64,000 bases of DNA from Escherichia coli (GTDB taxonomy: Bacteria > Pseudomonadota > Gammaproteobacteria > Enterobacterales > Enterobacteriaceae), in assembly GCF_001677475.2 (NCBI RefSeq), contig NZ_CP015229.1; one strand, 5' to 3'. The position numbers are program-made. Within the stretch, counting starts at the first letter, position 1. Each line of letters opens with the position of its first letter. Of the stretch, positions 3,001 through 9,000 are shown in pieces.

Positions 3001-6000
3001 GTTGTTAGCTCAGTCGGACAGAGCAATTGCCTTCTAAGCAATCGGTCACTGGTTCGAATCCAGTACAACGCGCCATACTTATTTTCCTGGCTCGCTTTTG
3101 CGGGCCTTTTTTGTATCCGCGCCACGCCCGGCGCATATCAAAAACCACAGAGCCTTTCAGGGGTGAGCTTACGGGATGGTCAGTGTGACTTTCTCTGTGG
3201 GCTGGTCACCCCCGGGCGCAGGCTCACCCACTAAAAGGAAAAGTCACGATGTTTGGTATTTTCAAAAAGAAAACACGCAAGGCCATTACCGAAGTGAAGA
3301 AGATGGAGAACCGCGACGCAGTGGAGGCGACCGTCTGGGGCGCGTATTCCATTGCATTTGCCGACGGCACCTGTGACGCGAAAGAAATCGCGGTACTGGA
3401 GAAAACCATTGCAGCACTTCCTGCCTTTGCTCCGTTCTCGGGTGAGATTGCACAAATGAGTGCAAATATCCGCGCCCGTTATGAAGCATCGCCGCGTTCT
3501 GCCAATGCCGAAGCCCTCCGCCAGCTGGCTGATATTGCAGGTACTGATGACGCAGTTAATGTGCTGTGCCTGTGTCTGGATATCGCTGACCAGGACGGCA
3601 TTGGCCCGGATGAAGAAGCGCAACTGAAGAAAATTGCTCAGGCGCTGCAGCTACCACTGGAGCAGTACCTGTGAAAAGTGCGCGCCTTGTGCTGGCTGCC
3701 ATCCTGCTGTTTCTGGTAGTGGCAGTGGATTTCACCGGACGGCTGATGTCGGTACTGGCAGATGGTGTGCTGGTGGCGGGGATGGTGATAATGGTGTTGC
3801 CTTTGCTGAAGAGTGTAAAAAATACACAGACGTGAAATGTTAAATCCATCACAATTAAGTTGATTGGGTATTGCTGGTTGACGGAGCTTTTGTTAGAAAA
3901 AATTTGCATGGTGGATCCCCCCGGGTGGTGGGCATATGAGTGATGTATGTTTCTGTTCTGCTCCTTTATTATGCTGATTCGGGTACTGATACTGAATTCA
4001 TCGGGAGGCACCCGGCACCATGCAAGCATGCCCCTCTCCTGAGGGGCTTTTTATATAAACAGGTTCTACAGATTCTATCAGACATGCGTAAACTTATTAT
4101 GGCCTGTGTCGTTTTAGCCCGTAGGGGCATATTTGCAGAATGCAACGGTTATTAAAGCATTCATTAAATACGTTATCTGAATTTGCAGGGCATTCTTGGC
4201 TGTTTTTGATTAAATCCCAGAATCTTTTATTGAATGGTACAACGTTGTAAATGGTTACAGGTAGCACTTTGTTATTGAGTACGATACCTGTGTGAGTCAG
4301 CGTAAATATACTTTCAGGAGGTAAGAAAACATCCGATTGATACCAGATTATTAATTTTATTTTACTCCATATGGCTGAAAAAGATATTCCACATGATGGC
4401 TGGATAACTGTATCAATCACAATCCACTTCATTTAGTTTCCTTATTTATGCCTTGCTGGTGATGTTCTGAAAAGTATAAATGATAATTTTGAATGTAAAC
4501 CATAGAGCAGAACTGTTTTTCTGATTTTGTTTATTGTTTATTTAAAATGCAGGGTGGTTTATATCTCGTCTTGTAGTTTATCCATGCATATCTGCTTTAT
4601 GATGAGGTTTTATTTAAAGTATGGTTTTGTGTTTTTTTCTGTATTGCATGTCAGGTATTTTAAAGAATTATTTTTTAGATGGTGGAAAGAACCATGGCAT
4701 TTAAACACTATGATGTTGTCAGGGCGGCGTCGCCGTCAGATCTTGCGGAAAAGCTGACACACAAACTGAAAGAGGGCTGGCAGCCATACGGCGGACCGGT
4801 TGCCATTACGCCGTACACACTGATGCGGGCGGTGGCTATTGAAGGAGAGCCACAGGTCGGCCCTTCATCTGAGCCGGACTGGTTCTACGTGGTTGTGCTT
4901 ACCGGACAGTCCAACAGCATGGCCTACGGTGAAGGGCTTCCGTTACCGGATTCTTACGATGCTCCGGATCCGCGCATTAAACAGCTGGCGCGCCGCAGCA
5001 CGGTAACTGGCATTTTTAGCAGAGCCTGAATGCCATAATCACGGCTCCCGGAGTTGGCCGTCAGTGGGTGACACGGGCGGCTTTTTGTTTTTCTTTACTT
5101 TCATTTTCTGTCGGCGGGGACGGAGACATACATCATATGGAAAAAATTACAACAGGTGTGTCATACACCACGTCAGCGGTGGGGACGGGATACTGGTTAC
5201 TGCAGCTGCTGGACAGGGTTTCCCCGTCTCAGTGGGCGGCAATAGGCGTGCTGGGGAGTCTGCTGTTTGGTCTGCTGACGTACCTGACGAACCTGTATTT
5301 CAAAATTAAAGAAGACCGGCGTAAGGCGGCGCGGGGAGAGTAGACGATGAACCATGAAGAAATGAATCAGCGCATAAGTTGCCTGGAAAATGAAATCACT
5401 GAACTGAATAAAAAACTGTCGGTGCTGATGGTTTCTGAAGATGAAAAAAAACGCCGCGATGAGCAGGAAGCAGCGTTTTACGATGATTGCATCAAAATTG
5501 CTCGCAGGACCTTTGCGAAGATTTTGCAGGAAAAGTTTTTACCGACCGCATTGTCAGAAAAGCACTCCATTACAGTTAAAAGTGCCGGAGAGGAAGGCAA
5601 TAAACGTTATTTTATTGCGTCTGCACCGGATAAAGACCAGGAATGGGGGGGGGAATCGGCCATCTTTTATTGTGACAAGCGATGACTGGAATATCACGAT
5701 CCGTGAAGATGGAAAAGTAACACCAGCATCGCACCAGCACAGTGAGGCGCTCATTGAATTTGCCATTGATTACCTGAAGAACAATAAAAAGCAGGGACTA
5801 ATGAAGCGCATTGGTCGTTGCATGGGATATCTGCAGGTAGCTGCTGAGATTGAAGCGCTGGCCAGTGGTGCGGACAAGGATGCTGTTGTGCGGGAGGCTC
5901 TTCTTCGTGATTTTGATAATCCACCCTTTAAAAAAGTGCCGGCTTACTGGTTTCATCCAGGACTGACTTATCTTAAAGGACGTATATAAGCTGGCTCGTT

Positions 6001-9000
6001 ATCTGTTGCCGGATAATCGACGGAAGATGCGTTCTTTTTGTGATTTGGCGTAATGATGATCCCACTCACATTCAAGGTAGTTTAATTCTTCGTTTAACCA
6101 GTCATTTATATTGTCTTTCAGACGTAGAAGCATGGCTGGTGTTAATATTCTGGACATAATGTCGAGAGTTGGTGGTGTGAGGTGTCCATACGGTTCAGCC
6201 TGAATGGATTTTACTGCTTCGTGGTTTTGCTGAATGAGTTTAAGGAATGCTGATTTAAATTGTTCATTCATGGCCTGCATGCAGGCGGTATATTTATGTT
6301 CATCGTTATACATTGCTAAATCCTCGACGGGAATTGTCAGATATATTTCAGCCATCAGGTAAAACACCAGTGCCCACCACTGGCGGGCTGAAGACTTAAC
6401 ATATCCAGGGATTCGGAACCGATAAATCCTGATAAATATCCATGAACACCAAAATCAAATACGGTCTGTCGGCTGCCGTTCTGGCGCTGATTGCCGCAGG
6501 TGCGCCTGCGCCTGAAATCCTCGACCAGTTTCTGGATGAAAAGGAAGGTAACCACACCACGGCATACCGTGATGGTGCGGGGATCTGGACCATCTGCCGT
6601 GGAGCCACCCGGGTGGATGGTAAGCCTGTTATTCCTGGCATGAAGCTGTCAAAGGAAAAATGCGACCGGGTTAACGCCATCGAACGTGATAAGGCGCTGG
6701 CATGGGTGGAGAAAAACATCAAAGTGCCGCTGACCGAACCCCAGAAAGCGGGGATCGCGTCATTCTGTCCGTATAACATTGGCCCCGGTAAGTGTTTCCC
6801 GTCGACGTTTTATAAACGAATTAATGCAGGTGATCGAAAAGGTGCCTGCGAAGCGATTCGCTGGTGGATTAAGGACGGTGGCAGAGACTGCCGTATCCGC
6901 TCAAATAATTGCTACGGTCAGGTATCCCGGCGAGATCAGGAAAGTGCGCTGGCGTGCTGGGGAATTGACAGATAAGCAGAATATTTTTGCTGAAAAATGA
7001 CGTTGGCCAACGTGGGCGGATAACGCGAAATCCTGCGAACTGGCGAAATGTAAGTGAGTAAAGTCAAAACTGTTGTTTCACGCTGAGGCACCGCAATGGT
7101 GCCTTTGTCATTTTCTGCGCATCTCACGCGCATATCACAACACAGAACCTTTCAGGATGACCCTTGAGGATACCGGTTTGGCTATCGGTGCTTTTCTGTG
7201 GGCCGGATTCCTGTGAGACAAGGTTCATCACTAAAAGGAAATAACCGATGAATATGATGACCGTGCCGTTTCACGGCAACTCTCTTTATGTGGTTAACCA
7301 TAATGGCGAGCCATACGTTCCCATGAAGCCTGTTGTTGCGGGGATGGGGCTAGCCTGGCAATCACAGTTGGCTAAGTTAAGCAGCGTTTTGCGTCAACTA
7401 TAACGGAAATCGTTATGGTTGCTGAGGATGGGAAACGACGCAATATGGTATCCCTGCCACTTCGAAAACTTGCGGGCTGGTTACAAACCATCAATCCCAA
7501 CAAAGTTAAACCTTAAATCCGCGACAGGGTCATTCAGTATCAGGAAGAGTGCGACGATGTTCTCTATGAATACTGGACGAAGGGTTTTGTCGTTAATCCC
7601 CGTCGAATGAGCGTGATGGAAGAACTCAATCAGGTATGCGCTGACATGAAATGGGATAAAAACATCGCCAGTTTGTTTGGTACCGGGCTGAGTGAGTGGA
7701 AGTCGGTTAAAGCTGCACATGTATCAAAAATTCGCACGTTGATAAACGAAGCGAATCTGCTGATTGATTTTGTCCTGGCTGATACAGGCAAAGGAAAAAT
7801 CACAAAGACGGATTGATGGAGTGGTGACCAATGATATCAGACAAACTCATAACGCTGGCGAAGATCCTCTGTGTAATTGTCGGCATTTCATTTTCACTAA
7901 TGCTGGTTGCTCTTTTTCTTTCCCTGGGCTGGATGATGTTGTCTTCGTCGGGGATGCTGGGGTGAGCATAAACCGAATGCTTTCCGCGTTTACCGTTATT
8001 CTGCTGGTGGTCTGTGGTGCGCTGTGTCTGGCAACAAACCATTACCGCGATAACGCCATCACTTACAAAGCGCAGCGCGATAAAAAAGTCAGTGAGCTGA
8101 AGCTGGCGAACGCCACCATTACTGATATGCAGCAGCGCCAGCACGATGTTGCTGCGCTCGATGCAAAATACTCGAGGGAATTAGCCGATGCGAGAGCTGA
8201 AAATGAAACTCTGCGTGCTGATGTTACCGCTGGTCGTAAGCGCCTGCGGATCAACGCCACCTGTCCAGGCTCCGTGCGTGAAGCCACCGCCACCGCCCGC
8301 GTGGGCAATGATGCCAGCGTCGAACTCTCTCCAGTTGCTGGACGAAACGTTCTCGGTATCAGAGACGGAATCATCAGCGACCAGGCAGCATTGAGAACGC
8401 TTCAGGAATATATCCGTACTCAGTGCCTGAAATAGTTTTTTCAATGCGTTGTATCGTCGCCGTATTTCCGCATTAACAGAGACCGCAGCCCTACGGGGAG
8501 ACTCCTCTGCGCGAGTGTGCGGGGATAATCAAAAACGATACACACCGGGGTTTACTGCGTTAACGGAGCGCGGCGTTGTCCCCTCATAGTCGCCTGGCCG
8601 GTGCGATGGTGGAAGAAACCGGAACACATTACAAAATGATAACAATTATCATTTTTCGGGTCCTCCTGGCGGGGTGGGCCTGTACACGGGGCGGGTCGGC
8701 GCGGAAAAAAGCGCATTTTTGTGATTTTATCGTCATCATCATCATGTATGTAAACTGTTGTTTTTAATGTAATTGATGCAAAAAAGATGATGGTTGTGGC
8801 CAATTTTTGTTCGACATCTTTGTGTGGCGGCATTTCTTTACAAAAAAACAGAATCACTTCTGTTCAGAGGGGTATGTGGAGGAGGCGTAGATGGACGGCG
8901 AGCTGAAAAATATGAAGTTAAATATTAATCAACTGGCAGCCCTTTCAGGCCTGCACCGGCAGACCGTTACCGCAAGAATGGCGGATGTTCCTCTTGCTCC

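Follow-up and report, generated by a model that had tools for sequence, protein, structure and literature searches.

A length-variable poly-G tract in an accessory gene of the lysis cassette of a decaying Escherichia coli prophage

The gene pair between holin and endolysin

The DNA analyzed here is a 64,000-nucleotide (nt) stretch of the Escherichia coli contig NZ_CP015229.1 (assembly GCF_001677475.2; hereafter the window), in which the lysis cassette of a prophage is interrupted by two accessory open reading frames (ORFs). Our subject is the first of these, ORF-A, and the run of nine G residues (G9) inside it; the second, ORF-B, is convergent to ORF-A. On the plus strand, a class II (S21-type) holin gene encoding 68 amino acids (aa) is located at 5137 to 5343 and an endolysin gene of the lysozyme family (177 aa) at 6442 to 6975, with a gap of 1098 nt between them. 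The holin was assigned from the RefSeq annotation of the identical sequence in strains N96 and GB089 and from a precomputed Pfam match (PF04971, Phage_holin_2_1), the endolysin from the RefSeq label "lysozyme" and PF00959. ORF-A (5347 to 5989, plus strand) starts 4 nt past the holin stop codon. With GC contents of 44.6% for ORF-A and 39.7% for ORF-B, compared to 54.9% for the holin gene and 53.7% for the endolysin gene, the pair is AT-rich, as is usual for accessory cassettes that have been inserted. The statements of a first-pass annotation on the G9, the frames, the ORF order, and the holin-endolysin spacing all held when the window was rechecked. A megablast search of 5,426 complete E. coli genomes revealed the whole arrangement (5100 to 6500) in 83 of them.

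The G9 homopolymer (5645 to 5653, plus strand) is the only G/C run of at least 8 nt in the window. Other homopolymers are an A8 inside ORF-A at 5444 to 5451 (GAT GAA AAA AAA CGC) and a G7 in the portal/head region at 12993 to 12999. The frame that opens at 5347 passes through the G9 and stops at 5685, giving a 112-aa product (5347 to 5685), and the +1-shifted frame, already open ahead of the tract, extends to 5989. Deletion of one G creates an ORF of 213 aa. That G8 would give one protein of approximately this size had been predicted, and strain GB089, the sequence of which is identical except for G8, confirms it: RefSeq annotates there an intact hypothetical protein of 213 aa (WP_065225645.1), with the in-frame codons TGG GGG GGG AAT (W-G-G-N). 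N96 shares G9 with the window, and the Prokaryotic Genome Annotation Pipeline (PGAP) labels the N96 gene "frameshifted." ORF-A matched PHROG 1085 over residues 1 to 213 (E value, 1.7e-101). It is under purifying selection, as judged from ratios of nonsynonymous to synonymous substitution rates (dN/dS) of 0.24 to 0.5 between diverged intact alleles. Based on the PHROG match, the PGAP label, the intact GB089 form, and dN/dS, we describe ORF-A in the window as a frameshifted pseudogene of a putative late-operon accessory gene.

The 112-aa product retains the N-terminal coiled coil and the linker, followed by 10 out-of-frame residues, the frame being lost after Gly-102. It lacks the whole C-terminal domain (C-domain; approximately residues 103 to 213 of the intact protein). 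The C-domain coding sequence at 5654 to 5989 (plus strand), which is out of frame in the window, was recognized by invariant columns in alignment A1, with the motifs GRCMGYLQxAAEIE, DNPPFK, and PG..YLK. This domain is the sole part of ORF-A kept in remote homologues, which otherwise have a DUF1327-like N-terminal domain. An AlphaFold2 model of ORF-A predicted helices at residues 3 to 27 and 31 to 64; its overall predicted local distance difference test (pLDDT) score was 48, with a score of about 80 at residues 1 to 20 only, and it was too poor for a structure search. In the model, the tract would lie in a low-confidence linker just ahead of the first beta-strand of the conserved C-domain. Insertions of Gly residues in the linker are tolerated in intact alleles (GGG form, 23 contigs; GGGG form, 22 contigs).

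Two codons near the tract could be considered for a translation restart. A GTG at 5672 is located 11 nt ahead of the premature stop codon, and an ATG at 5643 abuts the 5' end of the tract and is in frame with the C-domain in the +2 alleles only (G9T, G12T, and G10-AAT). Both have a poor Shine-Dalgarno context, and a restart at either is speculation. Gene callers use the ATG in +2 alleles, with the products MGGGNRPSF... (27 contigs) and MGGGGNRPSF... (13 contigs).

The convergent ORF is located in an AT-rich segment at 5999 to 6367 on the minus strand and had been described as encoding an acidic protein of 122 aa. The gene itself stood up to scrutiny; the length was too long and the product, with an isoelectric point of 6.5 in its 104-aa form, is only marginally acidic. 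Three starts were considered: an ATG at 6313 (104 aa), the RefSeq start at 6355 (118 aa), and a GTG at 6367 (122 aa), for which we found no support. ORF-B probably starts at ATG 6313 (5999 to 6313, minus strand), because its homologues have 104 to 106 aa, the codon is preceded by the Shine-Dalgarno sequence GAGGA at a distance of 7 nt, and the gene is called in this way in GCA_047262225.1. The homologues begin at residue M15, which matches ATG 6313, and the UniProt entry A0A2A6PZS9 has 104 aa. Conservation and a coding signal are present in the homologues: three diverged ORF-B types (104 to 106 aa) all keep the frame open with dN/dS values of 0.18 to 0.56 (the most distant types are saturated at synonymous sites), and 32 residues are invariant in the ORF-B alignment. 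ORF-B matched PHROG 1853 over residues 9 to 117 (E value, 7.8e-47), and its AlphaFold model contains five helices (pLDDT, 86; predicted template modeling score, 0.77). Judged from dN/dS and this confident helical model, ORF-B is a real gene. Directly upstream of it, a pattern scan detected a terminator-like GC-rich hairpin with a T-run (6365 to 6388, minus strand), and a promoter scan of 4900 to 7300 detected no sigma-70-like promoter for ORF-B.

ORF-A and ORF-B are arranged tail to tail, with a 9-nt gap in the window and a 21-nt overlap in the 222-aa ORF-A type described below. A remote ORF-A relative located outside a lysis cassette (P0208; approximately 30% identity in the C-domain) likewise has an ORF-B homologue directly behind it in convergent orientation (hhalign probability, 99.9%). 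This pairing indicates that the tail-to-tail arrangement is a conserved two-gene module.

Family and structure searches with the restored 213-aa protein and the convergent protein had been proposed; both proteins fell into PHROG families, each of unknown function. Searches of Pfam, NCBIfam, and PADLOC yielded no match for ORF-A, ORF-B, or their homologues in Shiga toxin 2 (Stx2) phage 86; profile searches against PDB sequences yielded nothing significant for ORF-A and ORF-B, and neither matched catalogued defense or toxin-antitoxin protein models. Structure and profile searches with ORF-B matched only uncharacterized enterobacterial proteins. An exhaustive profile search of 1.8 billion representatives retrieved only 43 relatives, none with an informative domain.

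Origin and length variation of the tract

The ORF-A family comprises 189 clusters, almost exclusively from E. coli prophages. All 82 cluster representatives that contain the site (82/82) read E-W-E-C-N, with the codons TGG GAG TGT AAT/AAC, at the position corresponding to the tract. Direct reads revealed a substitution series from TGGGAGTGTAAT (loci L008 and L009) to G6-AT (L003), G7-T (L011), and G8 (L002), in which G7-T corresponds to TGG GGG GGT (strain RM10466) and G8 to TGG GGG GGG (GB089). The repeat-free site in all representatives, together with this series, indicates that the homopolymer is recent and replaced a conserved Glu-Cys pair. The tract is confined to sublineages, and most of the ORF-A family is without the repeat.

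To count tract lengths among isolates, the exact product predicted for each length was queried in a collection of 15 billion proteins, and other members of the same clusters were also read. In the window-type haplotype, G6AT was found in 992 contigs, G8 in 50, and G9 in 7 to 9, with a single contig each for G5AT, G7, and G10. A sister haplotype named EE, which has the 222-aa form, displayed a longer ladder: G6T (1 contig), G7T (106 contigs), G8T (23 contigs), G9T (10 contigs), G10T (23 contigs), G11T (9 contigs), G12T (9 contigs), G13T (22 contigs), G14T (5 contigs), G15T (2 contigs), and G16T (1 contig). Overall, each length from G5 through G16 was seen among E. coli isolates, and G7T to G13T were confirmed in DNA at 22 loci from separate assemblies.

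The flanks of the tract were then compared without gaps; loci L005, L021, and L026 were left out of this comparison, since their indels lead to spuriously large distances. Seventeen loci representing six different lengths (G8T to G13T) displayed 0 substitutions across 857 flanking nt. Six lengths on substitution-free flanks indicate that changes of the tract far outpace point mutation, as slipped-strand mispairing predicts. Instability grows with length: G6AT is almost invariant, and approximately 15% of the G8 lineage has lost the frame. Thus, the suggestion of the first-pass annotation that the tract may be a slipped-strand site is borne out between isolates, with lengths of G5 to G10 in the window-type haplotype and G6 to G16 in the sister haplotype. 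These data support a slippage-prone repeat at the population level, and we infer slippage as the mechanism.

The tract of E. coli O22:H8 strain RM10809-3 (locus L005, 2527 to 2545) combines a window-like G9+AAT with a 222-aa-type background, the siblings of which read Gn+TAAT. It could have arisen either by a T-to-G change plus slippage or through a short recombination patch.

The prophage in the window is defective, as indicated by a split tape-measure gene and an antirepressor (ant) pseudogene. An insertion sequence of the IS21 family (20704 to 22955; istA, 499 aa; istB, 251 aa) is located within the lambda-type tape-measure gene, the N- and C-terminal parts of which flank it at 18507 to 20615 and 23008 to 23475. 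The ant pseudogene (7248 to 7816, plus strand), located between the endolysin and Rz genes, was recognized by its fragmented ORFs and by comparison with the 99.1% identical GB089 copy, relative to which single nucleotides are missing at 7381 and 7657 (the latter in an A run) and a stop codon is present near 7514. The GB089 copy is also annotated as frameshifted. An ISEc10 (IS21-like) insertion interrupts the adjacent lysozyme gene of N96 (locus L001, 4343 to 7291), which among complete genomes is the closest relative that carries G9; this is a second, independent sign of decay in prophages with this cassette.

The other lysis genes of the window are those for the Rz spanin (7977 to 8435, plus strand; "lysis protein" in RefSeq in the 99.1% identical GB089 copy) and, embedded in it, Rz1 (8188 to 8394, plus strand; a lipoprotein-like ORF). 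The endolysin N-terminus, MNTKIKYGLSAAVLALIAAGAPAP, is hydrophobic and Gly/Ala-rich, suggesting an endolysin of the signal-anchor-release (SAR) type. In a comparison with phage 21 (pinholin and SAR endolysin), the candidate counterparts are the PF04971 holin and the PF00959 lysozyme, both by annotation, the latter with a SAR character predicted from its N-terminal sequence, and Rz and Rz1 are present. Upstream of the holin gene, at 2082 to 5029, a cluster of accessory genes was noted: genes for an AraC-family regulator resembling YdeO/GadX (2082 to 2795), a TerB-family protein (3249 to 3674), a DUF3927 protein (3671 to 3835), and an antisense IraM-like/PmrD-fold anti-adapter (4097 to 4432), and a truncated DUF1737 gene (4679 to 5029).

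Readings of the tract

We propose, with a probability of roughly 70%, that ORF-A contains a hypermutable tract and that the window carries a null allele of this dispensable late gene. According to this proposal, ORF-A would be a soluble accessory protein of lambdoid/Stx-type prophages, translated from the late transcript right after the holin. At the junction of linker and C-domain, the codons TGG-GAG-TGT (W-E-C) would have been converted by point substitutions, in a few sublineages of E. coli, into a run of 6 to 8 G residues. At approximately 7 to 8 G residues, the run would have become unstable by slipped-strand mispairing during replication, with gains and losses of G residues far outpacing substitutions in the flanks. 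The window would represent a +1 product of this process (G9), which is out of frame after Gly-102 and, with the stop at 5685, encodes a 112-aa coiled-coil fragment. Being heritable, common to other isolates, and located in an already defective prophage, G9 would be a null (OFF) allele of a gene that is presumably dispensable. ORF-B would be a conserved gene in its own right, moving together with the ORF-A C-domain in the tail-to-tail arrangement and probably expressed independently.

Several observations weigh against this proposal. Contig counts are not independent events and are inflated by clonal lineages, and short-read calls of G runs of at least 12 are error-prone, so that the longest lengths of the ladder are less secure. 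The ED haplotype, which differs from EE by one residue, was G7T in 199 contigs and G6T in one, and none of the longer alleles queried was found; its constancy suggests that G7 alone is not strongly unstable. The two G7T haplotypes are separated by E82 versus D82 at ORF-A residue 82 (loci L011 versus L006/L007/L020-L038), and it is the E82 form that spans G6 to G16. Furthermore, the in-frame lengths G10 and G13 have about twice the frequency of their neighbors, although G8T is equally common. This excess argues for some mild selection for the intact protein, and hence for a function, and not for a balanced switch. Finally, a small residual doubt concerns the window's own assembly (see below).

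The excess of in-frame lengths also bears on whether the tract is used as a switch. A selected contingency locus, in which stochastic ON/OFF switching of ORF-A would serve lysogens as bet-hedging (in lysis timing, exclusion or defense, or host RNA metabolism), is possible although unlikely. It would explain the unbroken series of tract lengths, both ON and OFF alleles being represented among many isolates, and the enrichment of in-frame G10 and G13, and it would fit the purifying selection on ORF-A and the membership of this gene in a conserved two-gene module. In addition, +2 alleles place the C-domain in frame with the ATG that abuts the tract, which might provide a third expression state. 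However, the tract is recent and restricted to sublineages of a family that is mostly repeat-free, ORF-A has no match in PADLOC, the prophages that carry it as a late gene are often defective, and in the searched literature, we found no publication describing ORF-A or its tract. Moreover, 46 of the approximately 105 to 113 contigs with slipped EE alleles are in frame (41 to 44%), a share near the 33% expected under unselected drift and no more than a weak hint of a selectable phenotype. With this modest in-frame excess, a defective prophage, and polymorphism seen between isolates, adaptive phase variation is not established.

A more elaborate version of such a switch is rather doubtful. It would be a phage-borne contingency switch with three ORF-A states (full-length protein, N-terminal fragment, and N-terminal fragment plus a separately initiated C-domain), in which the module of ORF-A and ORF-B would control lysis timing, superinfection exclusion, or host RNA turnover, thus allowing lysogens to hedge. 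If true, this would be a simple-sequence-repeat (SSR) phase-variation system in E. coli.

It is improbable that G9 is a homopolymer error in the window's own assembly and that the true sequence is G8 with an intact gene. Homopolymer indels are the commonest error type in long-read assemblies, the nearest relatives (GB089, 09-00049, and OkiPb01715) carry G8, and the nearby ant gene also has 1-nt indels, one of them inside an A run. However, the GB089 copy of ant is frameshifted too, and thus the ant indels are not peculiar to the window assembly. The exact 112-aa product was found in 7 to 9 other contigs, comprising one 5.2-Mb contig, several small drafts of the short-read type, and the Logan assembly of SRR23828592, all of which have G9 at the DNA level; the identical G9 is also present in the complete genomes of N96 and RM10809-3. 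Over 1,250 nt, G9 carriers and the G8 carrier are identical except for the tract, and the window has one private single-nucleotide polymorphism, at 5884. Among complete genomes, 3 of the 66 full-length matches are out of frame and flagged as "frameshifted" by PGAP. The recurrence of G9 in several separate assemblies, including Illumina-type drafts, indicates a real heritable allele and makes the sequencing error considered in the first-pass annotation unlikely; assembly error was rejected as the main explanation.

Programmed recoding, in which ribosomal +1 frameshifting or RNA polymerase slippage on the G run would yield the full-length protein from G9, is very hard to credit: long homopolymers can provoke transcriptional slippage and two overlapping frames are open across the tract, but most reports of efficient slippage by E. 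coli RNA polymerase concern A/T runs, the out-of-frame alleles are spread over the +1 and +2 classes without a preferred frame, a scan of 4800 to 7300 revealed no Rfam element or stimulatory structure, and most homologues are single uninterrupted repeat-free ORFs (EWECN). Programmed frameshifting was rejected on the grounds that the slippery site and the two-frame arrangement are not conserved across homologues.

Comparison with known systems

The arrangement of ORF-A and ORF-B recurs in Stx2 phage 86 (NC_008464), in which orf5 and orf6 (a "YdfR family protein" and a hypothetical protein) are located between S and R and occupy the same slot between a class II holin and a lysozyme. As in the window, a homologue of ORF-B (78% identity class) lies behind, and convergent to, a same-strand gene with the same C-terminal domain. 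In contrast to ORF-A, the phage 86 protein has 268 aa, a DUF1327 N-terminal domain instead of the coiled-coil N-terminus, and EWECN without a G tract.

In the Qin prophage of E. coli K-12, ydfR is located between essQ and rrrQ, in the same holin/endolysin slot as ORF-A, and Qin is without ORF-B. The first-pass annotation was right about this position; its suggestion that YdfR may correspond to the truncated N-terminal product was not upheld, as K-12 YdfR and ORF-A gave no BLASTP alignment and have no sequence similarity. The identification of YdfR with the N-terminal fragment was rejected on this basis. ORF-A also lacks a Pfam domain and is represented by gaps in the DUF1327 columns of alignment A1. 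K-12 YdfR (103 aa; DUF1327, PF07041) matches the N-terminal domain of the 268-aa phage 86 protein with 47% identity, the C-terminal part of the latter is homologous to ORF-A, and long YdfR-family proteins (287 to 333 aa) contain an ORF-A-like region as their C-terminal part. As judged from these alignments, the family has a modular architecture ([DUF1327]-[coiled coil]-[linker]-[C-domain]), with ORF-A lacking the first module and Qin YdfR consisting of the first module only. The only related paper in the searched literature, which contained none on the cassette or the tract, reports an interaction of YdfR with the catalytic half of RNase E, along with RNA that copurified with YdfR (PMC13232886, 2026). 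This binding concerns the DUF1327 module, which is absent from ORF-A, and nothing ties the activity to ORF-A.

Among remote relatives, an ORF-A-like gene at locus L041 (GCA_011437295.1, 2156 to 2809) is located just downstream of a Q antiterminator gene and an antisense HicA/HicB toxin-antitoxin pair, suggesting that the same late-region slot collects different accessory modules. Regarding ORF-B, lambda-type morons such as bor next to Rz are similar in being small, AT-rich, and oriented opposite to the late operon in the lysis region; in Stx2 phage 86, too, bor is found just downstream. Unlike these morons, ORF-B is without a lipoprotein signal or a recognizable promoter and is tightly arranged tail to tail with ORF-A.

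The PHROG 1085 and PHROG 1853 genes constitute a conserved, uncharacterized convergent pair in lysis cassettes of Stx-type phages and merit functional study. Should the ON and OFF alleles differ in a lysis or exclusion phenotype, this would have a bearing on the induction and release of Stx phages. For annotators, the locus is a warning that its "frameshifted" labels mark real alleles rather than errors. Beyond this, a homopolymer can be followed here from its birth in a Glu-Cys codon pair through G6, G7, and G8 up to G16, in a gene present in hundreds of Shiga toxin-producing E. coli and cattle isolates, and the natural alleles could be used to measure the length at which a homopolymer becomes unstable in a repair-proficient enterobacterium.

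Phase variation in E. coli is usually described via inversion and methylation switches and not via simple-sequence repeats, and the species is not known to have SSR phase-variation systems. Homopolymer slippage is a familiar mechanism. Within the literature searched, we found no precedent for the locus, for the traceable birth of the tract from a nonrepeat sequence, or for its location in the lysis cassette of an E. coli prophage. Compared to the homopolymer contingency loci of Neisseria, Haemophilus, Campylobacter, and Bordetella, the ORF-A tract is recent, arose from a nonrepeat codon pair, and is found only in sublineages of one phage gene. Its host is not known for such loci, and it is located in a late accessory gene of a prophage, with no known surface or restriction function. 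It is known here from polymorphism between isolates. What ORF-A has in common with those loci is a poly-G repeat inside the coding sequence, where a slipped-strand change in length toggles the frame, and a tract length that varies between close isolates on otherwise identical sequence.

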